A stretch of DNA of 64,000 nucleotides. It comes from Takakia lepidozioides. Taxonomy: Eukaryota > Plantae > Bryophyta. The notes beneath the pieces are model-generated. The model searched no databases. It was not told the DNA's origin and saw only the letters and a program-made list of their open reading frames with translations. The translations under genes were made by a program, and so were the position numbers. Numbering within the stretch: the first letter of the stretch is position 1; every line of letters begins with the position of its first letter. The stretch lies in NCBI GenBank assembly GCA_030704615.1, contig CM060734.1:42408001-42472000 (forward strand), in the 5' to 3' direction. This document shows, one piece after another, positions 1,254 to 56,850 of the stretch.

Positions 1254-1440
1254 CAAAGTGATATTTCAAAGAGGTTTGAGATGGTGGATCTGAAAGAGAT
1301 CCTATGATCATGTGTTAATGATCAGTTTTTGTTGAAAAGACAAAGTGATATCTCAAAGAGGTTTGAGATGGTGGATCTTAAAGAGATCATGTGATCATGT
1401 GTTGATCAGGCTTTGTTGAAAAAGACAAAGCGATATATCA

Positions 1441-12127: not shown

Positions 12128-12270
12128 CTCTGAACAGCTCTTTCCTGTCACTCCCGCAAGATTAATTCTTTCAGCTTACCCTCTTCTCCCAACAACCAAA
12201 TGACTCGAGCAAGCCATGGTGGCGAACTCAGCAGGAAAGACAAGACCTTCAGACGGCTTCCCCACCATAG

Positions 12271-20336: not shown

Positions 20337-21742
20337 CCCTCTAAGTCCAGGTAGCCACAAGATGTGATAGTTACCGTAGCCTCACTAAGTCCTCCACCAC
20401 TGTCCCTACTACACTCAAACTCGATAGATCAAGAGGCCGGGTGCAAGAGTTGCCCCATTGTTAGTCGCCATCTTGCAACTTGTGAACTTGAGCCTGGGAT
20501 CTCGTGTATTGACTCCTATGAGCTTGGCCTCATGACTCTCTTGAACAACTTTGTCCACTGGTCACATGCTCGTCTCCACATATCCGGATCATCAAGGTCA
20601 AGGACTACTGCAGCCTCCCTGCGAATAGATGCAGGCAAATCTGGCTCTCGACCGAAGAAAAGAAAGTAAGGTGAGAACGAGGCAAGTGATGTTTGCTTGC
20701 TAAACCTGTAGCCCATGGCCAACCAAGGTAGCTGAAAGTCCTAATCCCCTAAGTGTCCCTTCTGCAAGCCATACTTGCGCAAGTCTCTCTTGACTGCCTC
20801 GGGATGATCCCGAGAAGTAGTGCGGTGATCTATCAAGGCTTGTTTACACAAAAGCCTGAAACCAAGAACTTTCTCCCCTGGTCCATGAGTACGTCGGCTG
20901 GAGCACCAAATTGGCTAAGCACTCGATCTAAAAATGCATACGCCGCCCTCTCACTTGCCTTGTCAGGCAATGACACCAACTCAATCCATTTGGAGATATC
21001 CTTCTTATAAGCTCGCATCACCATTGCCGATGCATACTCCCCGCCTGACAACTTCACCAATCCAACTTCGAACAATTTCATAGTCCGTGACTGGATCGAA
21101 GACCTCTCTATGTCATTATACCTGTAGGGCCTTTGAAAAATTGGCTTATCACTTGCCAAATCAATACGAATCTCTTGGCCCTTCAAACTCCCCAAATCCT
21201 TCAAACCAAAGGCAAAGCAATTTTTATAAGCCCTGAGAAATTGTTGGATCCTCCGTCTCTCTCCTCCGGTGACTGTAGGTCCAACATCTAGTTCCCAATT
21301 GTCCTCAGTGACTGCAACCTTGGGTACACCAGGCTTGGAGGTAGGAGACGCATCCTTTGGTTGCTAGATAACAACCTCTTGGGCCTTGTCCGCCCACCCT
21401 GACTGTGGCGTAGCCTCCACTTGCTCCGCCATAGCCACCTTGAGAACATCCTCCGCAAAAGAAACATCCTCAACCTCTTCAAGAGCCTTGGCTACCTTGG
21501 CCTCCAACTGATCCTCCGTGTATGGCTCTCCCCACTCCTCATATTGCTCCTTGAGAGATCCAATGACTCTCTCTTTCCACATCTCATCCCACACCTGCCA
21601 TGGGTGTTTGCACTCCATGATCTTGTGCTTGGCCCCACTCACTGCCTCCACCGTCCCGGTTGGCAGATAGGGTGCAATATCCAATGGAAGTGTAGAAATA
21701 GCCACCAATGCTTGCAATCTCCGTTGCTCAGCCATGCACAAG

Positions 21743-22683
21743 CCAATGACCCATGTCAAGCAATTGAGCTCAATTGTCTGACCCAACACCTGGCGTCGTG
21801 ATGCCTTTGAGAGAGCTGGCACAGCTATAGTGCCCATGGCAAACCCCATTGCCCGCTCTCGCTCATCTGCACTAGGCTCCATCAATTGATGTAGCGCATT
21901 GTCTCAAATCAACTCTGGACCATTGTCTCGAAAAGCATGAGACGAGGGAAAACTCATGAGTGTGTAAGGCCGCACGTGGTTGCCCCACTCGATTGACCAC
22001 CGCCAAATGTGGACGGTCATCATGTCGCACTCTCTGTGGTTGCCTGCCTTGGTCCAAAATGCCCTCAACCGTGAGGTTGGGTGGCCATTGAATGGAATCA
22101 TAGGCTATCTTGAGCAACTCTAGTGGTGCAAGATTGGTCCACCACAACCTAGGCTTATGTGCCCGTGAACCCACTGCAGCTGCATCCATAATACAGCTGG
22201 TCCAATCCAAGACCGCACCTGATGCACACTAGCCATAACCCTGGCCCGAGAATCCCCCATGAGAGGAACATTCTCTAGGATATAAGCTGGAGGTTGCACT
22301 TGTCTCACGTGCAAGTCACGCAACACTCGTAACATCTCCCAAAACAAATGCAACCTTGCATCATGTAAGCCATTCCCATGACCTGCGGGAGAGTGTCCTT
22401 AGCAAGACCATCCAGCTATCACAAAGTCAATTGCACCATGCCAGCCCAAATCATCCGCCCCCAGCAAAGTAATGTCTGCTGGCAAGGCCTTTTGGTACCC
22501 TTGAATTGTTGAGAAAGACAACAACTCAGAATACTGGTGTGTGAGCAAGGCAACGTGGCGCATAGAAATACGCCGAGCTATCTCATCCTTCTCCACATAC
22601 AAGTACTTTCATACTTTAATCCCAGCTTGCAACGCTCCTGCAAGCCAAGTGCTCATGCCTCCAAACAGGTCTAGCAAACAAAT
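21743..22683 (-). pseudogene. DNMT3-like C5 cytosine methyltransferase domain in Gypsy pol, copy 1 (catalytic PCQ mutated to SC*, frameshifted)
   Basis: LDLFGGMST, YVEKD, DFVIAGWSC*GHS, YILENVP, AHKPRLWWTNL, ERERAMGF, RRQVLGQ. Confidence 0.9.
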
Positions 22684-25360
22684 CCCTGAGTCAAGTGGTT
22701 GCTAGGTAATGGGCACTGTGTCCAAAAGAGCTAACTGAGGAGATCCAGGTGATGTCACTGAACTCCCCTCACTCATCAATGGAAAGGCCTCCTGCCATGC
22801 TTGGTGCACACTCTCGTCTGCTACTCGCTGCAATTCCCAACCGTACCCCACAGTGGAATATGCACAGGCACATGAGGAAGCAACTCAGTCTTGTATGCCA
22901 GTTGCTTGTCCTCATCAGATGGTGGCCTATCATCTGCATGGCTATTGCCCTCCAAGAGCTCACCACCCCAAGCCATCATCCCTGAGAATGCAACCAATGT
23001 GGGCATCATGTTTCTACCGTCCGTAGGATGATCCGGCTGTAATCGAATGAAGAGCTCATGGCGTGTAATCCCTCGCGTCTTCTCTGAACTACCCAAAGAT
23101 GTTTGAATTTGGAAAGGGCAAGGCTCCAAATCCGCCTCTATAAGGCCCAAGCCTGCAATTGCTGCTCTCCCCAACATCAAAGGTTGTGCTCCTGAGTCCA
23201 ACAAGACCCGCAGTGGCCTATATCTCCTCCCAGTTGGACCACCCAACTAAAACACTTCATCCTGATTGTCCACCAGGACTACTCCAGGAGTCACCATGTT
23301 GCGATCAATGGCTGGCCTAGCTGACAACTCCTGTAATCTTGCAGTTGTCGCTTGCCATGGCGCAGCTGTGGCTGACTTCACCCTTGAATCCAAAGCATCC
23401 ATAGACTGCACCTTATCTGCTATCTCCACAGATAGTGCCGATGCGTTACCTCTCTCACAAAGTCTAGCTGCTAGTCTGAACACAGCAGCTGGCCAAATCC
23501 CTGGCATTGCAATGGTCATTGCAGAAATAATAGAGCTTGGCAAACCACCGTAGCCGCCCCCAACAATGTACTGGCTACACCTTGCTTTGCAGCACCACCC
23601 ACTGGCATTTTCCGAGCCACACCAACTCTTCCCAATGACACTCGTGGCTCTACCTTTGACACACTTGGGCGAGCGGGTGTCATTGATGGCGTAGGTGGCA
23701 CTGTCTCAGCCAATGTAAAGGACTATGGAAGCCTTGTCTGACAACTTGTTTCCCCCCTTTGTGGATCAAAATCCACATCCGCTCCTCTTGGCTCAGGAGC
23801 ACGCGTTGCTGCTCGAGTGACAGCAGCAGCAGAGTCCAATACATGCAATGGCCTTGCAAGTGCGGCTCCACACATGAAGCCCATACCAATCTCGTCTTCC
23901 CTAGGCATAGGAGGTTGTGCAGATGGGGTTTGAACCTCAGGCCTTGGAGCTGGCGCAACATGAGTAGTGGCCATGGCAGCAAGACGTTGCTCTAGCTGGG
24001 CAAGTCTATCCACCATGCCTTGGTCATGACCTTGACCCTGACCATGTGCTCCTTGGTTTTGGTTACGACCTCCACCCCGACCTCTACCTCCTCTGCCTCT
24101 CTGGACTACATTGTATCGTCCTCGGCCACCATTGTTTCTTTGGAACTGGCCTGGCCGTAGCTCATAATGGGCCTCTTCATGCCCATACTTTCCACAATGC
24201 CCACAGTGTGGTTGTGTAGGCTGTGCCTGTGCCGGCCCCTTGCCTCTCTCCGGGCAATCCTTCTTGACATGGGATCCTCCACAATCCCAACATGACACAC
24301 TCGTCTGTTGCTGGCCCGAGAATGAAAGGAGAGACCTCTGAATCTGAGATATCCTCTATGGCCTTCCTTAGGCTTCATCTGAGCCCCCTTGTTGCCTTGA
24401 GCACGTTGGGGAGTTGGTTGTTGTTGGCTAGGAACTCCACTTCGTTGTATCTTCTTGCCAAATCCCACCATAACCACCCGTTCCTCCACCATATTGAGTT
24501 TTATCCGCTCTGCCAACAAAAACACATTTGCTAAGGTGGGTTGGGCTACTTGTAGGAAAGTTGCATCCCGCATCCTTCTCCTCAGCTCCTTGTCCAGGAT
24601 CCCATACCAGAACTGGACTGCCTGAGTTTTTATAACCCCTTGGGTTACGTTTATTAAGTGCCTCATGCGAGAATCCTCGGCGAGAATCCTCCTGACTCTG
24701 AGTCTGAACCTTCCTTAGAAGAAACTGAAGGTGAAGGTGGCCTAAACCGCACACCTCGTCTTGTGTACCCACTAGTACTGGTGGTCTTGCTGGTCATCAC
24801 TCCAGCCTCACCACCGACAGCATACTCTAGGATTGGCCGGTGATCAAATCCGGACCAACCTCCTATGAAAACAAGCGCCCACACAAAGCTAACATAACGC
24901 ATATCAAGCATGCAGGTGTGGAGGAGATCCAAACACAAGAAAATCAAGACAGCAAATCCCACACCAAAAACACTCCACAGTGTTGCTCCTACAAGGACAC
25001 CCCAGCCCAAACCCGGACTGATTCTTGCCTCCACCTACGGAAAGGTTTTGGCCTACAGAGAGGGTGAAAGACTATGGGGAAGAGAAACTAAAGCAATTCC
25101 TACCCCAGAATGCTCTCATCCCACCACTCTCCCTCCTGTCTCTATCCACTCGCTTGTATGGCCGTGGCAAGTATCCTTCAAATATCCCTCAATCAATTCT
25201 TCAAGAGCTCTTCAACATTAATGTCCACCAGAGCTCCTCGAAGGGTCCTCCAATACTCCTCCAAATACCCCAAAGATCCTCCAAACACTCCTCCAATGGC
25301 CCTCAAATATCTTCCAAACAATCCTCCAAAGGCCCTTAAATTTCACACTGTCCTTTCAAT

Positions 25361-25668
25361 GTTGATACCTTAACAAAGGTATAGTCTGAGGTTGCTAGGG
25401 TCCCTTATGTTGATGATACCTTTACAGAGGTATAGTCTGAAAATGAGGGTTCTGTTTGGTATACTAACAGAGGTATAGTCTGAGTTGATTAGGGTCCACA
25501 TATGTGGATACCTCAATAGAGGTATAATAAAAAGGACAAGCTCATGTTTGGTATACTAACAGAGGTATAGTCTGAGTTGATTAGGGTTCACATATGGTGA
25601 TACATCAATAGAGGTGTAGTAAAATGGACAAGCTCATGTTTGGTATACTAACAGAGGTATAGTCTGAG
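25361..25668. repeat. Array of seven AGAGGTATAG-type motifs with alternating about 49/43-bp spacing in the 5' noncoding region of Gypsy-DNMT copy 1
   Basis: Motifs at about 25376, 25426, 25469, 25518, 25561, 25609, 25652. Confidence 0.88.
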
Positions 25669-28600
25669 CATACACTACTAGGGTTTGTAATGAAGAGCTA
25701 GAATGCAAGTCCTTGACTTCTATGCTTCTACTCAAGCAAAAATATGGTCTTTAGGTGGTCATAAGAGGCATCTTCTTGCTCTCTTCTACCCCAATGTGCA
25801 ACCAAGAGTGGTTCAACTCAACTTGCAAGTCATTGTCCACCAAATCAATCCCCCTTCTAGTCCTTAGGATTTGATTGCAAACTACCATATCTCCATTGCC
25901 GAGCAATCATGCATTTGTCTCCTCCTCACTTGACAATTGCTCCAAATCAACACAAATTATCTCAATGTGTAGGAGCAATGCTTGTCACTTACAATAATGC
26001 TCCCAAGCAATCCGCCTTAGATCCCACTCTCACGCCATATGCCTCATTTGGGGTCTTCCACCAATCCATCATCCATGTGCTCCCCTTGGTCATTTGAATG
26101 CATGTTCCATGACCTCTTGGCCTATGTGTTGATCTCCTTCATCATAACATGAATCAACACCTCTCCACTTCACATATAAATGGATCTCAAGGCCTTCATC
26201 TCTTGCTAGTTCAAGAGCTCCCCTTCTCAAACTTGAACTTACAAACTCAAGAGAGCATGCTCCACACATGCACCACTTGCTTGGTCAACTATCCACCACA
26301 AAGCTCGCACTACCAAGCGCATAAATAGCCAAGTATTGCCTCCCCCTCTTGTCACATTACATAGTTAGGGTGAAGCTATGCATACATTGAATGATAATTT
26401 CCCTTCAAGGATTTCCCACTATATGTTCTCCAAGCCTTCCAATGGCGCCCTAAGCTTGGCTCTACAACACCATGATTGGAAGAGTTCTTCACATGCTCCC
26501 TTTCAAAACCTCTTGAGCTTCTCAGTGCTCTCCAAGTGCTTGCCCTTGTTGTCTTCAAGCCCAAGCCTATATAGCTTCTTGGCTTCTCTTCCACAACATC
26601 CACACTTTGAACTTGCTAATACCTAGCTTGATAGTTAAATGAGCACTAACAAACCTTTAGTCACTCTCCACAAGCCATGACACAGACCATTGACTCCATA
26701 ATGCATACAAAGGATTCTCAAACCCTAGAGTCCATGCTTCCACACACACACAAGACTTCCTTCTTGCAATCTTTGCAAAATCTTGTGACTCAAGAGCTTT
26801 CTTCTCAAGCTCTCCAACTCCTAGGTGCATCCAACACCCGAGCACCTTTCTTTGCAACCCCTTGCAAGCCTTGTGATACAAGAGCTAAATTCTCCTAGCT
26901 CTCAACATCTTTAACATACAAGTGCAAAACTAATCATTACATTCCGCACTCACAAGCATAAGATGATCTTCTTGTTGATAAGAGATGAAAAATGAGAAAA
27001 GTGGAAGATAATGAAAACTCTCAAAGCATGAAGCAATCACACTAAGAACAAGCCTTAGTCCTTCCAAGTGAAATCCACTCTATCACAGAAACTAAGTCAA
27101 GCCAAAGACACATTTGCTAAAGAAATCCACCCTACGAAGCCCTCAACATACTCCCTTTCAATACCTAGAGCTATGAAGGTGAGAGAGGCTCAACTACAAG
27201 AAGATGAGCATTCCTCAACCCTCACAAGGGGAAAACCATACCCATGTCCCAAGTGAGGCTTGATACCTCACTTGGCATATGAGATCAAATGAAGTCCCAA
27301 CACATAAAATATAAATATAAATATCTAAAAATGTCCTAGTTAACTAAAAGTAGGTAATTCTAATTAACCATGACTAAAACCATGACAAACAAGGTGGGGA
27401 GATGGACCCATAAGAAAAAGAGGCACATATATTGCTTCAATTGGTTTTGTCCACTAGAAGAAGATTTGGGGCATGCTAGGCTGCTACTACCATGCCCCCA
27501 AATTTGTTATGCTTTGTCCGCTGATATAGAGCGATGAGAGGGCATGTTGGGGCGTTGGACAAAGCCATGTCTGAAAGGGTGTAGTGGACAAGACCCGCTT
27601 TTCAATCAGACAGCTTAAGTAGTCGTTTGTCCAGTCGCTAGTCTTGTACATGTTTACAGAGTGTATGACAAGCCTGCAAGCCCCGGTCGTGGAGGCTTCC
27701 GGGTAGTGTAAACAGCAGCCTCATTGATGTTGCAGCGATCAGATCAAGTAATAAGAACGTCTCAAAATAAACGTTGAGCCAAAGTTGAGCTCTCTGCAGG
27801 ACATCCAGGCACTTTGGTAAACACAGATGCAGATTTATAAGAGTAACTCAACTAAGGATGAGGAGACAAAGGAAGCCCATACTGTCACATGCATTAGAGT
27901 AGTAGAGGCTAAGGCAGGCATAACGGATGCTGATATGAGATCAGAGAATATCATAATATGTATACACCAGCAAGACGCGCACTGCCCAAGAGTCAGAGTA
28001 AGGCTAAGCGCGTTACTGTGCATCTATGGCCCATCTATGGTAACAGGTCGCCACCAAGAAGCATATAACTAACATCACTGATTACAGCATTCCTGGCAGA
28101 GCAGCCCTTGAGCTGGACAATCTGTGGATTCAAACGTCTATCCGGGTTGATAATGTCGCTTCCTGCAATGAAATGCTGCGTTGTAATCACTGATTTGTGG
28201 AAATGCCATCCAAACTTTCCTTGTCCGCATTCTTCGTCACATGTGTCTAGATCTGTGGGGGAATCTGTGTGCAAGACTGTTGGAGACAAGTACAGTTTAC
28301 AAACAATTTAAGGGACTAAAAATTGTCCCGTATCATGCATTTGCCCAATGCCCAGGTTCTCCACATTTGAACAGGTGCCATTTCCAAGGGGCTCTCGGAC
28401 TGTTGCACTTACCAAGTTACTTCTCTCAGAGTCTGGGCAGCGGTGTACTTCCTCTGCCACCGGAGGTTGCTTCCCCCACCTAACTGGGTCCTGCCGATCT
28501 CCAAATCCACCTCCTTGAGCAAGTTTTGCTCTCCAACTAAGGGAGATGATAAATGTACAGTCAGTCTTAATTATGCAAATAATTCAAAAAGTTTGAACCC

Positions 28601-39170: not shown

Positions 39171-42100
39171 ATGGGCAGCACAAGCAAGCCGAAGCTCACA
39201 AAACGCCAGCCTTCTCTCTCCTCTCCTCCAAACCCAGCCTCTGACACCATAGATTCGGGGAAGAAGATAGGAGGGCAGGGAGAGGGGGCGCGCACAGTCA
39301 TAGCGGGCGATGCCAGCGCCAGTTGCAGTGAGACAGACGCTCGCCGATTTGCCAGTGATGAAGGCTCTGACTACGATTCTGAGTCTCCCGACATCGTCGT
39401 TGAAGGTATGTCTTCATTTGAGTTTTTGTACACATGAACCTTTCTTTTGCTTTTGGCTCTAAGAACCTTGAGTTAGTATTACATTGCGTTGCAAATTATT
39501 GATCTGAATGCAGAATCTTATCTGTGGCTTGATTCTTATAGCTTGTACAGTTTGCATGAGCTTTTTCCGATGTTCGTAAGACTAGAGAGCAAACGATACC
39601 CTGTGGTCACCAACTTGTTTGCATTATCTTGCTCCTCAGTATTTGCATGACTGAAGACTCAGTTCTTGGTTCTTTTTTTTCCTTCACACATACTTGGAGT
39701 CAGTACCTCTGGATATGCTTGAGTATGTCAGAGGTTAAAGCCAGATAGAAGCTTTGCCTTGAATTCCATCGTCTTGGAGAGAGTCTTCTTGGGAGAATCT
39801 GTCTGCTGCATGTTATGAGTTTTATAACGTAGCTTTGTCTATATGTAGGTGTTTTAGTAGGTTATAGCTGTTGTGCATGTGTGTCTAATCCTCAGAAACT
39901 TTAGGTAATGACAACTCCCATTGCATCTTTGGTAGCTTTGCCCTGGGAGGCAGTTATAATCTTGCATATGGTGAAACTTGTTCTATCATTGACAGTTAAT
40001 TTTAAATGTCCAGTATCTTGTTCACTTGAAGCGGCACTACTGACAGATCTTTGAACACCTCCCAGATGAATTCACAGCAGGTGCTAAAGAAGACGAAATT
40101 CTGAAAAAGGCGGATGCATTAACTCTGGAGGTAGTAGTACGAAGGCGGGCACGCCGAGTCCGGCAGCTGATGAAGCTCTATAAAGCTCAATATTGGGGCC
40201 TTCTAGAAGAGATGAGGTCCAAGTACCGTCGGTTTTACCTCCGGCATGGCAAGAGCGGATGGCGTGATGATATTGAGGGTGGGGAAAAACTGAGAGGGGA
40301 TGATGGTGAGCCTGTAGGGAGGGAGAGAGAGGGGGCAGCTCCAGCTACTGCAGAGGGAGGGATGAAGGAGCCACATGCCCCAGAGAAGGCAGGAACTGAG
40401 AGTTTACGTTGTGGGGCTCAGGGCTGCTCAGCGAAGCCCTTGCCTTTGAGTGTGTTCTGCTTCGCACACATTCTGCTGGAGCCCCGGCAGCGGCTGTACA
40501 GACCTTGCTCCTATGTCATTCGCAGGTTCTCTCTCTCTTTGTCTTTCTTTCTCTTTCATATCCCTGCCCTCTAGGAAGCCTATCGCCATTGGGTGGACTT
40601 GATATGGGAGTAGATAAAGGTCTCTGTGACTAAATGCCGGACTTGGGACCTCGTGTCTTTTTTTGTTTTGACCTGAAGTATTCTGCTTCGGGTGAGGTAG
40701 TACGTTGGATTCAGTTGGAGAGTTTGGGGCCTCTCCCTCTTTAGAATTTCTCTACTCGGGCCATTCCCTGCAGCTCCTTTGGAGTGGTGATCTCTGAATA
40801 GGAACAAGCAGATCCCTACTGCTTGGGGGCAGGCCCTCCGCCCAAAATGGGCAGTTGCATACTCTGTCTAGCATGCTCGGCATTTGGGCTAGTTGTGCTT
40901 AAACTTATAGCCTGCGAGACCTATCAATTACACATGTCACACTGACAACATCACTCCTCAGGGTGATTCCTGGGAAATGGTTACTTATGCCAAATCTAGG
41001 GCTTCGTGTGCAGTTTTTGGGGTGAATCCCAGGATGGACGATGTGTCCTTTAAAACTACCTGCTCCAGCTTAGGCTTGGATTATGTGGCCAATGGCTCCA
41101 TCTTGAGACTTGATAACAGAGGTACTCTGAAGGTTTCAATGTCTAAAAACACTACAAATATAGTCTCACATCAAATCAATTTAGAGGTTCGTCCCTTGAC
41201 AGGCTGGAGAGCGGTCTTAGACAGGATTGCTCCTGGACGACCAACCGATCTGCAAAGGGGGGTCAATTCCTCCGTGTGTAGATTTTGTGTTAACTTTGAG
41301 GATTGGCAAACCATTCAGTTTACAATATCCTTCAGTCACACAACGCTCAGACTCCGCAATATATGGTCAGCTAGCCTGTCTGGCTGCTTGGTATCAACCT
41401 CATCCAGGGCTTCAAACCTGTTAGAAACTTTCAAGTTGAAGTCCCCACCCTTGGCTGTCTTCCTAGAGTGCACAGCAAACAATCCTGAAGCAAAAGTCTG
41501 GCTTGCAGCTGGGCTCTTTCAACTTCTCGGGGCTGACCAACCAAAGGAAACAATTTGAAGTGGGACAAGTTCTTCAGGCAAATGGTATTCATATCTGTGC
41601 AGGGCAAGAGACGTGGGAAACTTCGGACAAACCGCTGGAGGTGTCAATGGTTCCCCTTCCGCTAGCAAAAGGGGGGTCATTCTCAATCTACACAAGAAAG
41701 GTGACAGAGAAGAGCCCGGGAACTAACTATCGAGGCATCGCGCTTCTCAATGCAGTTGGCAAGAGATTTTGCAGAGTTATAAGTACTTGTCTCGAGGTTG
41801 TTGAGTCTAGAGGTTGTTTCCATGAAGGCCAAGCTGGCTTTCTGCAAAACAGGGGCTGCGTGGATCATATCTTCACTCTAAGCCAGATTATCCAGGGAAG
41901 AAGCAGGGAGACCCACCCCTTGGACAAAAAGGCTAATGACACAGTGTGGAGAGATGGTCTATGGCTCCGACTGTGGTCATCTGGGACCAATGGAAAGATG
42001 TGGAGAGTGGTCCATAACTTGCATGCTCACACCACTTTGTCACTGTTAATGGACAGAAGTCTAACTTCTTTGACATAGACCAAGGTGTAGCTCAAGGATG

Positions 42101-44259
42101 TACCCTCTCCCCTCTGCTCTTCAAAGTTTTCATCAATCAACTTCTCAAGGATGTGGAAAGTGAGCGCAGGCATATGGGAGACTCCATCCAATCTTCAGGA
42201 ATTGATTGATTGCATGAAGAGATACTTACCTTTGGGGGCTAGAGGCTAACGTCAGTAAATGTGCAGTGGTGGCATTCAACTGGCAGTGGGGAAGCCAAGA
42301 GATTCATGTCCTCCCTTTTAACACATACCTTGGCGTTGAGTTTTCCTCCAACTGTAATTGGGAAGCACAGCTACGAAAAGTGATGCAATCTGGCAAGTGC
42401 AAAGCGTTGGGTCTCACGAAACTTTTCCACTGCAGAGGGATCAACTCTGAAGTAAAAAAACCCATGCTTTGCCGCATTATTAGGCCTACCTTGGAGTACG
42501 CATCTGCTGTGTGGGTCGATAACTCCAACCCGGCTAAGTCTCTAGAATCCATTCAAGTGGGGTGCTCAAGGAGTGCATGTCAGCATGCTCGAAAACAGCT
42601 AATGTGGCTGTTTGGGGTGAGTTTGGCATTCCTCCCTTAAGCTCCCGACGTGGGATGAATCCAAGGTCAGATGGTGGGGTCAGCTGCAACCCATGACTAA
42701 TATCAGATATCATAAGTTAATCAACTCTATATCTTGGAATCAGGAGTGCCCTATCAAACAGGCTAAGTCCTAGCGGAAGAGGGTAGAAGGGATTTTCAAG
42801 GATCTCAATCTAAGTCCGCAAGCCATGACCCTGCTGGATAAACTTGACTTAGAGACTGAAGTTTCCAAAGCCATGTCTGTTGCCAGGAAATTATCTGATG
42901 AAAATGAAGGTAGGCAGAAAACTGCCCTGAAACTGTTTCCAGTCTGACATAGGTGACGCCATCATGGATGACCTCAAGGGTTTACCCACTCTCGGCACTT
43001 AGACTGAATTCAAATTCAGGGCGGGCAGCCTACCTTTGAACAGCAAACAGATGCAGAGAGGAATGGGGGATTGTAAGTGCCCGTTGTGTGGGCAACCTGA
43101 AGACAATATCCACTTCCTGATTCATTGTCCTGGGTACTCTCACCAGAGAGACACCCTCTTCAATTCCATCAAGGGAATTGTTCGCGTACCTCTAGTTACC
43201 AACTTTGGAAAGGTCGTGGCTGAGCCAAAAGCCCAGGCCCTTTTGGGGTCAAATATTGGGCAAATCACACACAGCAGATTGATGTTTGTCTGAAGGGATT
43301 TCTAGAGTATATCTGGAAAACTCGGATCAATTGCTTGTCTCAATGTAAGTCATACTACTGACATCAGCCCCTGACAGAGGTAGCTTCTGCCCCTTTGTGT
43401 TCCGCTCAAACTAGGCACAGGGTCAACGGCCACAAGGCTACGGCAAACAGCCTCTTATGAGTACATTCTTTCTCTTTCTCTCCCACTAAAACTCTTAAGT
43501 ATTAAGTATTAAAACAGCATACGAAATCCGCCAGAGCCAGTTGTGGGATTCCTGCCCACACGGGTAAGAAACTCAGCCTAAGATTTACAGAGCACTTTTG
43601 CACAGCCAATGACAGTATAGTCACAGGAAAGTGAGTTTTGATGTATGGGCTTGTTGGGCACCATGCTAGAACATGCAGTGTTTGATTCCAACAGTGTGTT
43701 CGAGCCTCAATTCCCAACATTCTAGCTTTGGACCTACACAAATGTCTGTATAAGATTCCAGTGCGGAGGTTCTATAAAGTTTGTCTCTGGTGGTAAATGC
43801 AGTGGGCAGAATGGAACAGTCACATGTTCAAAGCCAGTACTTCGGGCAGTTGTACCGTCTTTATGTGCAGTCCATTTCCAACAGGCCCAGAAACAGGCGG
43901 CACGTTCATTGCGGAAGGCTGGCCTGGTCTTACCTCCAGGCTCAGCATCCAAACCAACGGCACAGCTGCATTACTACATTGCTGAATACATCCGGATCAT
44001 TCAAAGCAAGCGTCATGCCCTTCGTTTTGCAGCTTTACGAGCCGCAGCATCTGGACCCTCCAGCACAGTGGGTGGAGGGCAGGCAAAAGCTACCAATGGG
44101 TCTGCAGTCATTGTTCCAAAACCTCCTCCAAAGCTGGGCCCTAACACACATCTAAAAAATTCTGGTCTCAAAAGGGAGGGTGTTGGGCATCCTAGCAAGC
44201 CACCTGGGTCCATTGGAGCTGCAGCCACGGCATCTACCGAGATGGTCTCCCGGCCCTAG
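39171..44259 (+). CDS. INO80 complex subunit D / KANSL2-like zf-C3Hc3H protein, about 383 aa; exons 39171-39405, 40066 (or 40078/40081)-40525, 43803-44259
   Basis: RRRARRVRQLMKLYKAQYWGLLEE, CGAQGCSAKPLPLSVFCFAHIL..QRLYRPCSYV, TCSKPVL..PSLCAVH, LHYYIAEYIRIIQSKR; intron phases consistent. Confidence 0.88.
40558..43465 (+). mobile_element. Near full-span LINE (copy B of the CT-associated family) in intron 2 of the INO80D-like gene, with internal deletions
   Basis: 13-bp TSD TTCTTTCTCTTTC (40545-40557 and 43466-43478); APE start (GSFNFSGL..AGQETW), RT close to copy A, YLGV, RPTLEYAS, C-terminal CPLC..HFLIHC; no poly(A). Confidence 0.92.
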
Positions 44260-46590: not shown

Positions 46591-48302
46591 TTGGTAGGAA
46601 CAGATTTGATAGGGACATAATAAAAAAAAATGCATCTAAAGAAATTATCAAATTCCATTTGGAAATTCTCTGCTAAAAAACCAGCATTGTTTGGATGAAT
46701 TGAGATCTAATGGTCCAATGCCGTTTTCGTTAAATTGTAGGAAGTTAGGCCTGGTCCCAGACGGAGGCAGTAAACCTGTCGTGCACCTAAGCATCGTGCC
46801 ACAACATACATCGCTATCCACCATACATTCTAAGCACACAATCCTAGAAAGTTATGCCACAATGTAATAATGAAAGTGAACACAGGGGAAACACTTCACT
46901 CATGAATCCACTCAATCACATAAACTAAGTCAAGCCAAGGGCACCCTTGCTAAGGGAATCCACCCTACAAAGCCCTCAACACACTGCCTCTTAATACCTA
47001 GAGCATAATGGCGAGATTGAGAAGTTTGAAGCAGCTCATTCGAGTGTCACAGGCAGTGAGGGAAGCTTTGCAGATACTGTGGTTCAATCCATTTGGAGAA
47101 GTGTTCCACCATCACCAGCACATACTTGTTATGGCGAATCGTCAGTGGCAATGGGCCTGCGAAGTCAAGACTCCAACGATAGCCCAAACCCATAATGGGT
47201 AAAGGATGCAATTGTGGAGTAGGGGCGTTGAAAGAAGCCCGCACTCTATCACACACCATGCACCTTCTGAAACTCTGCAGGAGCATTCTTCAGCCCAAAC
47301 GGTAAGAACCGCCATAATTGGTACAAGCAATCATTCCCATGTTGGTCAATCCCCCAGAATGTCGTCTTTTGCTTGTCAACCTCTTTGATTGGCAACTGGT
47401 GGTAACCAGATCGCAAGTCCAATGTATTAAACACCTTTGCATGCCCAATGGCATCAAAGATCTCCTCTGGAGTTAGCATGGCATATCTATCGGACTTAGT
47501 CTAACGGTTCACAGGACGATAGTCCGCACACATCCTTCTTTCTGTCCAATTGCCATAGATATCCTTCTTAGTTGGCATCACCGTTGCCGAGGCATACTCC
47601 CCGCCTGACAACTCCACCAATCCAGCTTCGAACAACTCCATAGTCCGTGACTGGATCAATGACCTCTTCATATCACTATACCGGTAGGGCCTTCGAAAGA
47701 TTGGCGTGTCACTTGCCAAATCAATACGAATCTCCTGACCCTTCAAACTCCCCAAATCCCTCAAACCGAAGGCAAAGCAATTTCTATAAGCCCTTAGAAA
47801 TCGCTGGATCCTCCGTCTCTCTCCTCCGGTGATTGTAGGTCCAACATTTGGTTCCCAATTGTTCTCAATGACTACAACCTTGGGTACACCAGGCTTGGAG
47901 ATAGGAGACGAATCCTTTGGTTGCTAGATAGCAACCTCTTGGACCTTGTCCACCCAATCTGACTGTGGCGTAGCCTCCACTTGCTCCGCCATAGCCACCT
48001 TGAGAACATCCTCAGAGCAAGAAACATTCTCAACCTCTTCAAAAACATTGGCTACTTTGGCCTCAAATTGATCCTCAGTCCATGGCTCTCCCCACTCCTC
48101 ATACTAAAGCTTGAGAGATCCAATGACTCTCTCTTTGCGCATCTCATCCCACATTTGCCATGGGTGTTTACAACCCACGATCATGTGCTCGCCCCCACTC
48201 ACTGCCTCAACCGTCCCAGTTGGCAGGGAGGATGCACCATCCGATGGGAGTGTAGAAGTAGCCATCAATGCTTGCAATCTCCATTGCTCAGCCATGCACA
48301 AG

Positions 48303-49231
48303 CCAATTATCAATGTCAAGCAATTTAGATCCATTGCTTGACCCAACACTTGGCGACGTGATACCTCTGACAGAGCTGGCACATCTGTAGTGCCCGTGGT
48401 AAAACCCATTGCCCGTTCTCGCTCATCCGCATTGGGCTGTAGCACGCTGTCCCAAATCAACCTAGGACCATTGTCTCGAAAAGCATGAGACGAGGGAAAG
48501 CTCATTAACGTAGGCAAGGCTGTACGTGGCTGCCCCACTCGATTGACCACTGCTAGAGGTGGACGGCCATCATGTCACACCCTCTATGGTTGCCTCCCTT
48601 GGTCCAAAATGCCCTCAACCGTGAGATTGGGTGGCCGTTGAATGGAATCATATGCTCTCTTGAGCAGCTCTGGTGGTGCAAGATTGGTCCACCACAATCG
48701 AGGTCGATGCGCGCATAATCCCACCGCTGCTGCATCCAATAGCACCGCCGATCCAATCCAAGACCGCACCTGATGCACACTGGCCATTACCCTGGCCCGA
48801 GAATCCCTCATAAGAGGAATATTCTCCAAGATATAGGCTAGAGGTTGCACTTGCCTCGTCTGCAAGTCCCGTAACACACGCAACATCTCCCAAAACAAAT
48901 GCAATCGTGCATCATGCAAGCCATTCCCATGATGCGGAGAATGTCCTTGGCAAGGCCATCCAGCTATCACCAAGTCAATAGAATCATGCCGGTCCAAATC
49001 ATCCGCCCCCAGCAAGGTAATGTCTGCTGGCCAGGCCTTTTGATACCCTTGAATTGCTAAGAGAGGCAACAACTCAGGATACCGATGTGTGAGCAAAGCG
49101 ATGTGGCGCATAGAAATACGCCGAGCTATCTCATCCTTCTCCACATACAAGTATTTGCGTACTTTAATCCTTGCTTGCAACACTCCTGCAAGCCCAGTGC
49201 TCATGCCTCCAAACAGGTCTAGCAAACAAAT
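48303..49231 (-). pseudogene. DNMT3-like C5 cytosine methyltransferase domain in Gypsy pol, copy 2; all motifs present, two in-frame stops
   Basis: Motif I LDLFGGMSTG, II YVEKD, IV DLVIAGWPCQGHS (PC at 48950-48955), VI ILENIP, VIII AHRPRLWWTNL, IX ERERAMGF..GTTDV, X RRQVLGQAM; same ORF as the protease C-terminal half (48584-49864). Confidence 0.93.
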
Positions 49232-52200
49232 CCCTGAGTCAGGTGGTTGCCAGGTAATGGGCACTGTATCTAAATGAGCTAACTGAGGAGGTCCATGTGA
49301 TGTCACTGAACTCCCCTCACTCATCATATAGGCCTCCTGCCATGCTTGGTGCACACACTCGCCTGCTACTCGATGCAAATTCCCAACTGTACTCCACAGT
49401 GGAATATGAACAGGCACATGAGGAAGCAAATCAGCTTTGTATGCCAATTGTTTGTCCTCATCAGGTGGTGACCTATCATCTGCATGGCTATTGCCCTCCA
49501 AGAGCTCATCACCCCAAGCCACCACCCCTAAGAATGCAGCCAATGTGGGCATCATGTTCTTATGATCCACCGTTACATTCCTAATAAACCGCATTGGGAG
49601 CAGTGCAGATCGAGCATCCCCTGACTGCCATTCCGGCCTGTAGGATGTCGTTTCCTCCCAAAAGTCCAAAGTAAAGCCCATCGTGTATAACATAGCCCCA
49701 CCAACAAGTACATCATAAGACATCGCGTCTGTAACAATGGCTTTAGCTCTCATGACAGAGCCATATGTAGGATGATCTGGCTGCAATCGAATGAAGAGCT
49801 CATGGCGTGTAATCCCTCGTGCCTTCTCTAAACCGCCAAAGATGTTTGAATTTGGAAAGGGCAAGGCTCCAAATCCGCCTCTGTAAGGCCCAAGCCTGCA
49901 ATTGCTGCTCTCCCCAACATCAATGGCTGTGCTCCTGAGTCCAACAAGACCCGCAGTGGCCTATACCTCCTCGTGGCTGGGCCACCCAACTGAAACACAC
50001 CATCTTGATTGTCCACCAGGACTACTCCACCATACTACGCTCAATGGCTAGTCTAGCTGGCAACTCTTGCAATCTTTCAGCTGCCGCTTGCCATGGCGCA
50101 GCTGTGGCTGTCTTCACCCTTGAATCTAGGGCATCCATGCACTACACCTGATCCGCTATCCCCGCAGATAGTGTCGATGCATCACCACTCTCACAGAGTG
50201 CAGCTGTCAGTCTAAAAACTACAGCTGGCCGCATCCCCGGCATTGCAATTGTCGTGGCAGAAAACAATGGAGCTTGGCAAATTGCCGTAGCCACCCCCAA
50301 CAATGTACTGGCTACACCTTGCTTTGCAGTACCAACCACTGGCATTTTCCGAGCCACACCAACTCTTCCCAATGACACTCATGGCTCTACCTCTGACACA
50401 CTTAGACGAGCGGATGTCATCGATGGCATAGTTGGCACTGTCTCAGCCAATGTAAAAGACTGTGGAAGCCTTGTCTGCCAGCTTGTTTCCCCTCTTTGTG
50501 GATCAAAATCCACATCCGCTCCTCTTGGCTCAGGAGCACGCGTTGCTACTTGAGTGACAGCAGCTGCAGAGTCCACATGCAATGGTCATGCAAGTGCGGC
50601 TCCACACATGAAGCCCATACCAATCTGGTCTTCCCTAGGCATAGGAGGTTGTGCAGGTGGGGCTTGAACCTCAGGCCTTGGAGCTGGCGCAACATGAGTA
50701 GTGGCCATGGTAGCAAGACGTTGCTCTAGCTGTGGGCAAGCCTATCTACCATGCCTTGGTCATGACCTTGACCGTGACCCTGTGCTCCTTGGTTTTGGTT
50801 ACGACCTCCACCACGACCTCTGCCTCATCTACCTCTCTAGACTACATTGCCTCGTCCTCGGCCACCATTGTTCCCTTGGAACTGGCCTGGCCGTAGCTCA
50901 GGATGCAAGTCATAATAATGGGTCTCTTCATGCCCATACTTGCCACAATGCCTACACTGTAGTTGTGTAGGCTGTGTCTGTCCCGGCCCTTTGCGTCTCT
51001 CTGGGCAATCTCTCTTAACATGGGGTCCTCCACAATCCCAACATGTCACTCCCGACTGTTGTTGGCCTGAGAATGAAGGAAGTGACCTCTGCAATTGAGA
51101 TCCTCTTTGTCCTTCTCTGGGCTTCGCCTGAGCCCTTTTGTTGCCTTGAGCACGTTGGGGTAGTGGTTGTTGTTGGCTAGGAGCCCCACTTCGTTGTGTC
51201 TCCTTACCAACCCCACCATGACCACTCGCTCTCCACCATATTGAGCTCTATCCGCTCTTCCAGCAAAAACACGTTTGCTAAGGTGGGTTGGGCTACTTGT
51301 AGGAGAGTTGCATCCCGCACCCTTCTCCTCAGCTCCTTGTCCAATATCCCATACCAGAATTGGACTGCTTGAGCTTCTATAACCCCTTGGGTTACATTTA
51401 TCAAGCGCCTCATGCGCATGTAAGCCTCCCTTAAACTCTCGGCAGGCTTTCGTTGGAACTCTTGCAAACTCCGCAATTTCTCCGTCCTTATCCCCTGGTA
51501 GTTTCTCCTTAACTCCTCGAAGAACTCCACAACTGGGTTAAAGGCAGGCACGGGTGTTGGTGCTGCAGCAGGAGCTTGGGTGGACTTCCCAGCTCCTGTT
51601 CACTTGACGTCCCACTGCTGCTGCTTGCAGAAGCTGCCGGTATAGCTGCCGGTGTCACCACTGCCCTTGTGCCTCTAGTGATGGAGACATAGTCAAGTGA
51701 CCAATACACCCACCATTCCTCAATCTCCACCTCATGTCCCCGCCTAAACTCATGGTAGTCATCCATGGGCGGCCCCTCAAGGTGCTGAAACAGCCCCTTC
51801 CACGCCATAAAAGGCGTAAACAGTTGTGGATTGCGCATCTGCTGCAAATCACACCAACTATCAAACTCTTGTATGAAGTCATCAAGCTCGATGGTGCCCA
51901 CAGCTCCAGAGTACCTACGTGGCCCCTTGGTAGCTCCATACATCTCCTCCATCGTGTCCCACAACAATGGCACGGAAATGACTTGCACCCTCGGCGAGAA
52001 TCCTCCTACTCCAAGTCTGAACCTTCCTCAGAAGACACTGAAGGTGAAGGTGGCCTAAACCGCACAGCTCGTCTTGTATACCCACTAGTATCGTTGGTGC
52101 TCGTACCGGCACTCTCCTCAGCAACTGGTGGCACCTCCGTGATGAAACTCACAACCACACCTGTTGTAAACCTGTCTCTAATCCCCCTTTCCACAAGGTA

Positions 52201-52859
52201 ACCGGGTAGAGAACTTGTTGCAGCTTATGGCTTAGACTACTAGGTTTGTAACATAAACCTGCACCTGCATCCACCGCAAGTACTCTTATGGTCTGCTGGT
52301 CATCAACCCAGCCTCACCATAAGAGAAACAATGATGGTTTGACTGGTCATCACCCCAACCTCACCACCGACAGCACACTCTAGGATTGACCGGTGATCAA
52401 ATCCGGACCAACCTCCTATGAAAACAAGCGCCCACACAAAGCGCTAACATGGCGCACAGTCAAGCATGCAGGTGTGGAGGGGATCCAAACACAAGAAAAT
52501 CAAGACAACAACTCCCCTTCACCAAAAACACTCCACAGTGTCGCTCCTGCAATGACACCCCAGCCCAAACCCGGACTGACTCTTGCCTCCACCTACGGAA
52601 AGGTTTTGGCCTACAGAGAGGGTGAAAGACTACAAGGAAGAGAGACTAAAGCAATTCCTAATCCCAGCATGCCCTCATCCCACTACCCTATCTCCACACT
52701 CTCTTGCTTGAACAATAGACAAGACTACCTTTCAAGGGTCTCTCAAATAACTCTCCAGGAGCCCTCAAGAATATGTTTCTCAAACAATCTCACTAAGGCT
52801 CCCAATCCTTGCACAATGGGACTCCAAAACAGTACACCACGGCCCCAAGAGCCTGCCAA

Positions 52860-53365
52860 AACTTAGCCCTCGAGGACCCCAAATAGTCCCTCATACAAGT
52901 CGCCAAAGACTCCTCAAGCTCGCCAAATATTGGCCTCCAAGGACCCCAAACAGTCCTCCAAAGAACTCCAAAGAACTCCAAATGGTCCTCTAAATGGTCC
53001 TCCAAGGACCCCAAACAGTCCTTCAAGGACTCCCAATGGTCCTCCAAACAGTCCTCCAAGGACTCCCAATGGTCCTCCAAATGGTCCTCCAAGGACCCCA
53101 AACAATCCTCCAAAGACTCTTCCTATATTGCCATGTTCCCAATGCGTTCCCAATGTGTTCCCAAGTTCCCAATGGGTTCCCAATAAGTTCCCAAAGTTCC
53201 CTAGGCATATTCCTGAGAATATGCCATAGTATTCCCCCAGTATTCCCCTGGGCCTATATGTATTCCCCTTGTATTCCCCTTAGGAATAGCCATTCCCCCC
53301 TCATAGAATAGTTCATTTCCCCCCAGGGTTTAGCCATTTCCCCCTAGGCTTTAGCCACTTCCCCC
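52860..53365. repeat. Nested short tandem repeats (GGACYCCMAAY..TCCTCCAA, GTTCCCAAT, ATTCCCC units) in the 5' noncoding region of copy 2
   Basis: Directly visible; produces the low-complexity ORFs at 52793-53311. Confidence 0.88.
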
Positions 53366-55001
53366 TCTATTTCCTTGAGGTTTAGCCTTACCAAGCTAGG
53401 GTTTGTGCTCCTTGGGGCTCTATGCTTAATCCCCTCAAGCATCCATGAATTCTATGGGGTACCAAAGCAAATTCCCTTGATCTTATTCACCTTAAGCTAC
53501 TCAAGTTTGTCTCCAACTCAACTAGCAATGCATTGGCCACACAACAAGCTCAATTTCTCATTGGAACTCCAAATCAAGCTTGTACCTCCTTTGGCAAGCC
53601 ACCAAGCCTTGTCTCCTCTCAAGCCTTGGTCATTCAAGCTCCATTCACTTGCTAGCTCAAGAGCCACTCCTCTCAAGCTTGAAATTGCAAAGCTCAAGCC
53701 AAAAGCATGCTCCACACATGCATCACCTCATACACAAAGGAATCAACTTGCTCCCTTTACCTTCTAGCTCTCCTCAAGCGTGAAATTGGAAGCCACACTT
53801 GGGAAGCATGCTCCACATAAGCATCACTTGCTTGATCAACCATCCACCACAAAACTTAAGCCAAAAGGGAATGAATACATGAGCTTCACCTTCTCCTTCC
53901 TTGTCTTGTCACATGCTAGCTATGGTTGAAGTTGATATGCATGCCTTGAGCCACAAATCTCTTTTCTTCATGAAGACCACCTCCAATGATCTCCCACATG
54001 TGCTCCAAGCTCTTCAATGCTCTAGGCTTGGTTTCACATCATCATGGATAGAATTTTCACCCATATGCTTCCCTTCAAACCTCTTGAGCTTCCTAATGCT
54101 CTCCAAGTGCTTGCCCTTGTTGTCTTCAAGCCCAAGCCTATGTAGCTCCTTGGCTTCTCTTCCACAACATCCACACTTGAGCTTGCTTAACCCTAGATTG
54201 ATAGTGAAATGAGTACTAACAATTATTTAGTTGCTCTCCACAAGCCATGGCACACACCATTGACTCCATAATGCATTGAAAAGATTCTCAAACCCTATAA
54301 TCCATGCTTCCACACACACAAGACTTCCCTCTTGCAATCCTTGCAAATCTTGTGGCAAACAAGCTCCTTCTTGAGCTCTCCAACACCTTGGTGTAACACC
54401 ACAAGTACTTTTCTTTGCAAAGGCTTGTGATCTACAAGAGCTCCATCTTTGAGCTCTCCACCTCCTTAGGGCAAAGCAATATCTCTCAAAGCCCTAACAC
54501 CACAAGGATTTTCCTTTACAATGTATGCAACACCTTGCAACACAAAAGCTATCTTCCCAAGCTCTTCAACACACAAGTGCTAAACTAACCCTTACACTCC
54601 GCACTCACTAGCATAAGGTCATCTTCTTGTAGTGACGATAATGAAAGTGAACACAAGGGAAACACTCCACTCATGAATCCACTCAATCACATAAACTAAG
54701 TCAAGCCAACGGCACCCTTGCTAAGGGAATCCACCCTACAAAGCCCTCAACACACTCCCTCTCAATACCTAGAGCTATGGACGTGAGAGAGACTCAGGGA
54801 GGCTCAACTACAAGAAGATGAGCCATCCTCAACGCTCACAAGGGGAAAACCCATCCCCATGTCCCAAGTGAGGTTTGACACCTCACTTGGCATGTGAGAC
54901 CAAATGAAGGCCCAACACACAAAATACAAATATGAATATCCAAAATATCCTAGTTAACTAGAAGTAGGTAATTCTAGTTAACCATGACTAAAACCATGAC
55001 A

Positions 55002-55689: not shown

Positions 55690-56850
55690 TTCTTTTTTTT
55701 TTTTTTTCTTAAGGGAACAGGGGATGGAGGCCCTGAGATTTATTATAGAAAGAAAGGGGGGTACAAGTGGAAAAATATACACCGGGGCTGTAGATTAGGC
55801 ATAAATCGCATTGGGAACCTCCCTAACCTAAGAGATAAGAGGGAGAAAAAATGGAGATGTAAACCGAGGGAGAAGTTGGCGTAATGAGGGGCACCAGGTA
55901 GAGCTAAATGCCACTACCAAAGTCTAAATGAGCCTTGAAGCGGGGAAGACGGAGCTTGCGGTGTCACCAGTTGATGTCAATCTCGTCTCCATCAGCATGC
56001 GACTTTCCAGGAATGGGGTTGGGGATGATGTCATTCTAAGTGACTCTCGAGGCCAAAACGCGGGAGCAGATGCGACCATTCTTGCCCTAGGACTCATCGA
56101 AAGCCGTGAGAGTTGCACTCTCCTCCTTTTTCCACCTTCAGATAACACTACAAGCAAAGAAATCCAAGTTTTTCGCCCCTCAGTCATCAGGTCCGAGAAA
56201 ATCCTTGCGAGGATCTTCCTGATGCTGGTGGCAGTGCCAGAATACACAAACTCACACCTCGATTTCCATATGTGCCAGAGGGTGTGGGCTCTCAGACAAG
56301 CCCACACCGGACAGCGAAACAGGGGAGAGCACAAGGGGAGATTTAGAAGAAGAAGAGAGGGGTTGGAGATATCAATGTACTCCCAATTGGAATTAAAAAA
56401 AACAACCTTGGGCCAAGTAATGGCAGGGAAATGACAAGAGAGAAGGCAATGCTCTATGGTCTCCGGGCTTTGGTGTTGGCACATAGTGCAGAGCCCGTCA
56501 GAAGTTGTGGGGTGATGTCCCAGGCAGAATCCGATTTTACAATTTTCCAAAGGAAGATACTGACTTTGGCTGCACGATCCTTGCATAAGATATATTGCAA
56601 GATAGGTCCCCAATCAGACAAGGTGGAAAAATGGGACCATTTTTTGTTCCATTTGGAAGAGAAAGAAATAGAACCAAGCATAAGTCTGTAACCAATTTTG
56701 ACTGTGTAACCAAAGAAGGGAGACTTTGTGGAGTTCATCTAGAACCACTCGTTCGGGTCGAATTGCAGCCCGTGCGAGGGAGACCGAGATACTAGCGTAG
56801 CTATGGCGTGAGCCCAGTGCCGTGAGCCTGGGAGCTGAGCTCACGCTTTA
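55690..56850 (-). mobile_element. L1-type 3' end with zf-RVT, 3' UTR and poly(A) tail
   Basis: KVSIFLWKI, CTMC..PETIEHCLLSC, LWHIWKSRC; T-run at about 55693-55707 on +. Confidence 0.82.

Follow-up and report, generated by a model that had tools for sequence, protein, structure and literature searches.

Why would a Gypsy retrotransposon of a land plant encode its own cytosine methyltransferase, and at what level would the enzyme be made? These questions are raised by a 64,000-nucleotide stretch of the genome of Takakia lepidozioides (GenBank assembly GCA_030704615.1, contig CM060734.1, positions 42,408,001 to 42,472,000 of the forward strand; henceforth the window), in which a preliminary description made from the letters alone had placed a DNMT3-like DNA methyltransferase (DNMT) inside the pol region of such an element. 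The window holds two copies of this element, the one so described (copy 2) and a second one (copy 1), and the two are 88% identical. We consider the chances slightly better than even that copy 2 is a dead copy of a bryophyte Ty3/Gypsy family, in which a first open reading frame (ORF) comprising Gag, the aspartic protease (PR) and the DNMT ends at a conserved stop, readthrough of this stop yields Pol, and DNMT-rich particles likely methylate the cDNA.

The methyltransferase domain and its relatives

On its minus strand, copy 2 contains a 458-residue frame open from stop to stop (48584-49960), which runs, as first described, from the C-terminal half of the protease through C5-methyltransferase motifs I (49222), II, IV (GWPCQ, 48961-48947), VI (ENI, 48826-48818) and VIII (48712-48680), with motifs IX-X lying further along at 48424-48338; these positions were counted by hand on the open-frame translation and are consistent with alignments to relatives. 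The proposed continuation through motifs IX-X to the reverse transcriptase (RT) stands inasmuch as the frame is kept, but it is not open, for it crosses four stops (48586-84, 48577-75, 48106-04 and 47926-24). The first three, which are sense codons in copy 1, are evidently products of decay, whereas the fourth is common to copy 1 and the rest of the family.

The PF00145 profile of Pfam matches the open frame with 37.1 bits (cut-off 22; E 3e-9), and across the family the order of motifs I-X is unpermuted, unlike that of DRM, with the catalytic PC, ENV and RxR present. When the Marchantia relative P0001 was compared with PDB sequences, the top 25 of the 27 matches were DNMT3A, DNMT3B or DNMT3C, with M.HaeIII and one other methyltransferase behind them. 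The structural evidence comes from the close relative P0309, whose model, built from a 59-row alignment, reached a predicted local distance difference test score (pLDDT) of 92.8; the window domain, modelled by AlphaFold from its single sequence, reached 31. Every match listed by Foldseek for the P0309 model was a DNMT3 structure (top E 1.7e-18, 22% identity). By these profile and model comparisons the domain is a DNMT3-like C5 cytosine methyltransferase, as had been proposed. Of 64 mapped copies, 63 have the catalytic Cys, 57 the Glu of motif VI and 61 its Asn; intact copies most probably encode an active DNA methyltransferase.

A metagenome scan, in which 160 stretches were confirmed, returned 80 loci of the family, so that the domain, far from being confined to one or two copies, recurs in these as well as in ORFs of Marchantia. 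Between copies 1 and 2 the ratio of nonsynonymous to synonymous divergence (dN/dS) in the DNMT is 0.22 over 308 codons (Nd 51/N 702; Sd 61/S 222; nucleotide-level count), with 0.78 in the linker (103 codons) and 0.50 in the RT start (121 codons), and the window DNMT differs from that of locus L002 by a dN of 0.28 and a dS of 2.4. Among the loci, the median falls from 0.95 in near-identical pairs (dS < 0.1, 34 pairs) to 0.25 in 129 distant pairs, for which the protease gives 0.34 and gag, RT and RNase H give 0.18; these pairs are not independent, and the dN of some may be inflated by reading through frameshifts. Given this fall from near-identical to distant pairs, the pattern is one of long purifying selection on the DNMT, overlaid by neutral decay after insertion.

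The named relatives that share 52-68% identity belong to Marchantia polymorpha (14 of 15 long matches), Calypogeia fissa and Sphagnum troendelagicum; Sphagnum tenellum adds a shorter match. At least five ORFs of Marchantia polymorpha span the full length of Gag-PR-DNMT (Mp4g09160, Mp5g06330, Mp5g06860, MpVg00370 and MpVg00540), all annotated as hypothetical proteins. Assignment to Gypsy is borne out by the Ty3/Gypsy order gag-PR-RT-RNase H-integrase seen at the family level in L008, L016, L038, L047 and P0350, RNase H being missing from copy 2 by deletion. More distant relatives with the order zinc knuckle-protease-DNMT are found in Closterium and Klebsormidium nitens. Hornworts, lycophytes, ferns and seed plants contributed none of the named relatives among 15 + 40 matches, which, the searches being word-limited, is weak evidence of absence; in viral contigs, 15 pattern matches yielded none that was confirmed.

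In a DNMT tree of 123 sequences (midpoint-rooted, built without host DNMT3, DRM and DNMT1, and with 18 near-duplicates and copy 1 left out), the window domain, Marchantia, Calypogeia, Sphagnum and the loci form a clade (support 0.969), which is nested together with the two algae in a larger clade (0.975). In an RT-RNase H tree (47 sequences, without the K. nitens RT), elements with the DNMT before the RT form a group with support 1.0, apart from those with the DNMT after RNase H. The two trees group the elements alike, which fits one old capture and the joint descent of DNMT and element. A second large Gypsy group (P0043, P0051, P0052, P0055, P0104, P0128 and others; 27 rows in the RT tree) shows the order RT-RNase H-DNMT-integrase-PHD. 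Both trees set this group apart, and hence the domain either changed its position or was captured twice.

The stop codon between the methyltransferase and the reverse transcriptase

The junction between DNMT and RT is reached by 47 of the 80 loci, which together with the two window copies give 39 distinct junctions. An in-frame stop is present in 35 of these (19 TAA, 15 TAG and 1 TGA), the remainder being 2 TAC, 1 AAA and 1 deletion, against a mean background of 1.4-2.3% stop codons per coding domain and a maximum of 35% at any single codon elsewhere. The codon directly after the stop is CAA in 33 of the 39, across three sequence groups with near-saturated synonymous sites and differing flanking peptides, so that at the level of the family a stop followed by CAA-YYN splits Gag-PR-DNMT from RT-RNase H-integrase-PHD. 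In both window copies the stop shares the frame of the ORF on either side and its context fits UAG-CAR-YYA, the same nine bases, TAG CAA CCA, recurring in copy 1 at 21366-21358. Judged from protein models, the five Marchantia ORFs (1278-1281 residues) end at a matching distance, 63 residues past the DNMT domain, and a Calypogeia model ends 65 past it. The stop is very likely a programmed feature rather than decay.

This arrangement revises two points of the preliminary description. Instead of lying simply inside pol, the DNMT belongs to the Gag-PR frame, and a PR-DNMT-RT polyprotein is not supported as the default product, since the RT would be reached only by readthrough. With or without readthrough, the DNMT, as the end of the Gag-protease frame, would likely be made at Gag levels. 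CAR YYA after UAG is the readthrough signal of tobacco mosaic virus (TMV) in plants, active after UAA as well, and Tyr is the residue inserted on such readthrough (available text of PMC2754532); SIRE1 is mentioned as an instance of stop suppression in the available text of PMC2194720. The stop is in frame with the RT in 19 of 22 testable L002-type junctions, and in the other groups the majority length is 411. Two intact relatives, P0350 and P0355, placed by the RT tree as sisters of the bryophyte clade, encode gag-PR-DNMT-RT-RNase H-integrase in a single ORF with no stop, implying that a fusion product is viable. From these sequence features we consider it reasonably probable that ribosomal readthrough bypasses the stop. 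Loci L022 and L040, which are 94.8% alike and count as one shared event, carry TAC (Tyr) at the stop position and may represent a fused variant or chance.

Several observations count against this explanation. The full CAR-YYA hexamer is present in only 10 of the 39 junctions, with CAA CCC in 22 of them, and no conserved RNA structure was found 3' of the stop in seven copies (z -2.5 to +1.1). Reinitiation would be allowed by an ATG that follows the stop in the same frame at a distance of 3-5 codons in 24 of 25 L002-type and 8 of 11 L053/L065-type junctions. In most L053/L065-type copies a run of G shifts the DNMT into a frame other than that of the stop, the two agreeing in 2 of 11. An intact long frame is found in 0 of the 80 loci, many of which are duplicates in that a given insertion was assembled twice, and the Gypsy elements of de Mendoza et al. 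carry the DNMT in one ORF with the RT according to the peer-review file (available text of PMC5890265). Contigs compared with the 66-nt junction listed no differences, yet a near-fixed difference at 47943 was missed as well, so that this comparison is no evidence. The 40 listed of 406 differences between the window copy and host contigs include none at the four stops and carry no weight on which of these stops are common to other host copies. L053, L056, L062, L074, L077 and L078 are mostly one base out of frame at the G-run past motif X and still conserve the downstream peptide; such copies possibly descend from a non-autonomous master copy or mark a frameshift site.

Some of these points suit a different expression scheme, in which the family and its Gag-level DNMT are the same and the RT-integrase part is made separately, by reinitiation at a nearby AUG, from an internal promoter or by splicing like that of Ogre. 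The ATG close behind the stop and the DNMT out of frame with it in most L053/L065-type copies would be explained, and there are precedents in Ogre, which splices out the spacer between gag-PR and RT (available text of PMC6317226), and in Tca2, which bypasses its stop without a TMV-type signal (available text of PMC2194720). In the window copies, however, no in-frame ATG occurs within 30 codons after the stop, the first Met of copy 2 being codon 85, inside the RT; all three groups retain CAA as the codon following the stop; and the frame relation between stop and RT is maintained as given above. A single conserved intron also fits poorly with three Marchantia gene models (P0002, P0007 and P0013) that join DNMT to RT at three different places. 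We regard separate production as a plausible though rather unlikely alternative to readthrough.

Anatomy of the window copies, priming and integration

The features of the two copies are collected in the following table.

Coordinates of element features in the window (position 1 is its first nucleotide; LTR, long terminal repeat)
Feature	Position	Strand	Remarks
Copy 2, whole Ty3/Gypsy-type element	46863-55001	-	from sequence comparison
5' LTR, 374 bp, TG...CA	54628..55001	-	ends read from sequence
Predicted self-primer (transcript 5' end)	54807..54821	-	arm of a perfect 15-bp inverted repeat
Primer-binding site at LTR end	54619..54633	-	6 nt inside the LTR and 9 nt beyond
5' leader, 2.6 kb	52028..54627	-	tandem repeats at 52934-53119, 53131-53201, 53314-53365
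gag	50028..51952	-	ATG at 51952; two zinc knuckles at about 51046-50906; broken by stops and frameshifts
Aspartic protease	49580..50028	-	DSGA active site 49941-49930; frameshift near 49836
DNMT3-like C5 cytosine methyltransferase	48290..49240	-	unpermuted motifs I-X; two decay stops between VIII and IX
Conserved in-frame stop and context, TAG CAA CCA	47918..47926	-	end of the Gag-PR-DNMT frame
Reverse transcriptase, N-terminal half only	47261..47923	-	YxDD, RNase H and integrase zinc finger deleted
Integrase fragment, about 65 codons	47065..47262	-	first catalytic Asp only; remainder and PHD finger deleted
3' LTR remnant, last 142 nt	46863..47004	-	
Copy 1, decayed	20520..27386	-	3' end approximate; 5' LTR, gag, PR, DNMT without catalytic motif, RT start

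The gag announced upstream of the DNMT is in place, and its N-terminal part shares 75-77% identity with Marchantia P0001 (tblastn); the Retrotrans_gag and zf-CCHC profiles match it weakly, under their cut-offs. The protease is recognized by Asp_protease_2 in relatives (P0048, E 1e-6; P0350, E 3e-4). Of the RT said to follow in frame, copy 2 retains the start but is cut after the first half, and what had been called a DDE-type integrase amounts to the short fragment listed. Relative to a single-ORF relative, copy 2 has lost about 430 codons (the remainder of the RT, RNase H and the integrase start) and then the rest of the integrase. Its 5' LTR matches the 3' remnant at 96% over 138 nt and the LTR of copy 1 at 87%. 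A target-site duplication was not found at copy 2 (flanks CACAA vs AACCA), possibly owing to decay or recombination. Judged by the stops ahead of motifs IX-X, copy 2 is dead: neither an active enzyme nor transposition is to be expected from it. Copy 1, having lost the catalytic PC motif of its DNMT, is evidently dead too; its RT start is joined to an integrase piece, and no 3' LTR was found for it. The leader of copy 1 contains a 92-nt tandem array (25415-25690) missing from copy 2, which has other short arrays at 53131-53365; leaders thus evolve much faster than the coding part. The A-B-A-B repeat pattern of DIRS-like elements is absent from the window and from self-comparisons of 17 long loci, and a tRNA gene search of the window found none.

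Primer-binding sites of the tRNA type typically start with TGG, and that of copy 2 does not. Rather, the site at the LTR end is complementary to the predicted start of the transcript, and a predicted RNA fold, in a folding window chosen around both arms, also pairs the two. In 15 of 24 5' LTRs, at least 11 of the 12 bases at the LTR end are complementary to a site inside the LTR, as is the case in 0 of 792 control windows, and in most L002-type loci the primer site lies about 30 nt past a TATA-like box. The window and the L002-type elements thus show the same pairing with different sequences. L002-type loci have the at least 10 bp of complementarity, 0-5 bp past the 5' LTR, that are expected of a Tcn1-type self-priming site, whereas copy 2 has a 15-bp helix with only 9 bp past the LTR end. 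A full LTR pair in L008 matches at 86%, with no target-site duplication recognized there. From the sequences and by analogy, reverse transcription is very probably self-primed as in Tf1.

A PHD-finger pattern occurs in 18 of the 80 loci and, in those translated, ends the integrase frame, after which comes a stop; the PHD finger of L038 scores 42.1 bits against a Pfam cut-off of 24. A chromodomain after the integrase is not the case, the frame ending in the PHD finger. Whether this finger steers integration by reading histones we rate as an even question, given the domain order.

That the host is a land plant, as the preliminary description had it, agrees with a flanking leucine-rich repeat (LRR) receptor kinase at 7650-9803, whose best match is from Ceratodon purpureus (52% identity, 750 bits; other named matches at most 42%, among the best 120 of 901). 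By this one gene the host is most likely a moss, though one not closely related to Ceratodon. It lies within an intron-containing LRR receptor kinase gene (5350-12175, minus strand), the named relatives of which include HSL1. Inspection of the translations by eye also pointed to further remnants of mobile elements: a Copia-type piece at 299-1947 (plus strand), LINE-type RT pieces at 2782-4624 (minus) and 41467-42227 (plus) that match each other in inverted orientation over a long distance, non-LTR fragments next to each of the Gypsy copies at 19467-20354 (plus) and 55924-56613 (minus), and a hAT-like transposase end at 17087-17686 (minus).

The role of the enzyme and its published counterparts

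In the sequence of events that we envisage, an LTR-driven transcript would be translated into Gag-PR-DNMT, a minority of ribosomes would pass the stop and add RT-RNase H-integrase-PHD, and the resulting particle would hold many copies of the methyltransferase; the element RNA would then prime its own reverse transcription, and methylation of the cDNA would precede or accompany its integration, at a site that the PHD finger would help to choose. On balance we lean towards cDNA of the element itself, located in the particle or the pre-integration complex, as the target for which the DNMT has been selected. Two results speak against such methylation. CpG depletion, as a footprint of self-methylation, was not detected (observed/expected 0.47 and 0.42 in the two copies vs 0.42 for the window), and KnitGypsy-Dnmt3 of Klebsormidium produced no methylation in yeast, an assay in which human DNMT3B failed too and which the authors call inconclusive (available text of PMC5890265).

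The selected job of the enzyme could instead be nuclear, with methylation of the integrated copy, its flanks or host DNA either damping the element's own expression or shaping the host methylome. A Gag-level enzyme far exceeds the need of one cDNA, and the family is abundant in its host (13,435 contigs of run X1 match 3.7 kb, which is not a copy number). In the same run, the window copy has T/A where other copies have C/G at 126 of 235 listed places, with 28 in the reverse direction, as expected of a methylated, decaying copy. Yet fusion to Gag brings a domain into the particle by default, and selection on a mobile family favors effects in cis. The decay itself is explained without the element's enzyme by host DNMT3b, CMT and MET1, which already methylate transposons in mosses (available text of PMC6453930). 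A nuclear role accordingly strikes us as conceivable and somewhat improbable.

A still smaller chance attaches to the idea that the domain has been kept for nucleic-acid binding or RNA methylation rather than DNA methylation. Its position in the Gag frame, the seat of RNA-binding functions, and the yeast result for KnitGypsy-Dnmt3 would agree with this, but the catalytic Cys, ENV and the S-adenosylmethionine-binding motifs are kept, the closest structures are DNMT3s that act on DNA, and in yeast CG was methylated by DNMT3-type domains from DIRS elements of Symbiodinium (available text of PMC5890265). That a host DNMT3 fragment was captured once and carried neutrally would suit the broken state of both window copies and the near-neutral ratio of very close pairs, and is rejected as exceedingly improbable on the low dN/dS between the window copies and among distant pairs, the same domain position in mosses, liverworts and two algal genera, and the agreement of DNMT and RT trees.

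Gypsy elements with a DNMT3 have been published from Klebsormidium nitens as KnitGypsy-Dnmt3 (de Mendoza et al. 2018; available text of PMC5890265, which also underlies the comparisons that follow). Like the present family, they are Gypsy-type and carry an intronless, unpermuted DNMT3-like domain under purifying selection, and the K. nitens protein KFL_013780020 (P0152) has the order zinc knuckle-protease-DNMT and falls in the same DNMT clade (0.975, midpoint root). They differ in their host, an alga there and a land plant here; in the DIRS-like A-coding-B-A-B repeats of the paper's legend, against ordinary paired LTRs here; and in the single ORF with RT (and RNase H) given by the authors, against the conserved stop. 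P0152 ends 12 residues past the DNMT match, and P0169 12-13 residues past it with a similar last word, which hints at a stop after the DNMT in the algal family; the difference in ORFs may thus be smaller than apparent. The PHD finger and self-priming of the bryophyte family are not mentioned in the available text. SymbioDIRS-Dnmt3 of Symbiodinium is likewise a retroelement-borne DNMT3-type enzyme, in its case with de novo methylation of CG in yeast, but belongs to the DIRS order with a tyrosine recombinase and is an independent capture according to the authors. The EpiLTRs of Cymbomonas and Euglena (available text of bioRxiv 10.64898/2026.05.21.726589) also combine a DNMT with a chromatin-reading domain in LTR retrotransposons, but their enzyme is sister to DNMT4, is encoded at the 3' end of pol and is accompanied by a DAM and a chromodomain, where the present family has a DNMT3-like one before the RT and a PHD finger.

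Predicted self-priming without a tRNA primer is shared with the Tcn1 and Tf1-Sushi chromoviruses, which occur in mosses (Neumann et al. 2019; available text of PMC6317226) and have chromodomains in place of the PHD finger; none of the words methyltransferase, methylase, PHD and Marchantia is matched in the main text of that paper. With the TMV-type leaky stop UAG-CAR-YYA (available text of PMC2754532) the family shares an in-frame UAG followed by CAA CCA, situated here between Gag-PR-DNMT and RT, with readthrough predicted from the sequence. Host enzymes, namely moss PpDNMT3b (available text of PMC6453930) and mammalian DNMT3A/B, have the same fold and motif order, whereas the element domain shows about 22% identity to DNMT3A in structural alignments, has GWPCQ and not GSPC at motif IV, lacks the host N-terminal domains and is embedded in a retroelement.

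No land-plant description of a DNMT-bearing Gypsy family was found in the literature searched, whose scope ended short of subscription papers. In the available text of PMC5890265, the species table lists Physcomitrella and has no match for Marchantia or Sphagnum; two later papers, in their available text, say 'streptophytes', citing the 2018 study, and their supplementary trees might include bryophyte copies. The family extends a published kind of element to land plants and has an apparently undescribed expression layout. In a wider and more tentative view, these elements may represent an ancient streptophyte lineage, alive in liverworts and mosses, that makes its DNMT as a Gag-level particle part before a leaky stop, is self-primed and PHD-targeted, and arrives in the genome pre-methylated.

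Why retrotransposons carry cytosine methyltransferases has been an open question since 2018, largely since the known hosts are hard to work with, and the full-length ORFs of Marchantia polymorpha make it testable in a genetic model. The conserved stop would mean that there is probably one enzyme per Gag instead of per Pol, which points to a role in the particle. DNMT gene counts in bryophyte genomes may be inflated by such elements. If the view of an ancient, pre-methylating lineage is true, de novo methylation in a model land plant would have a mobile source in the derepressed element.

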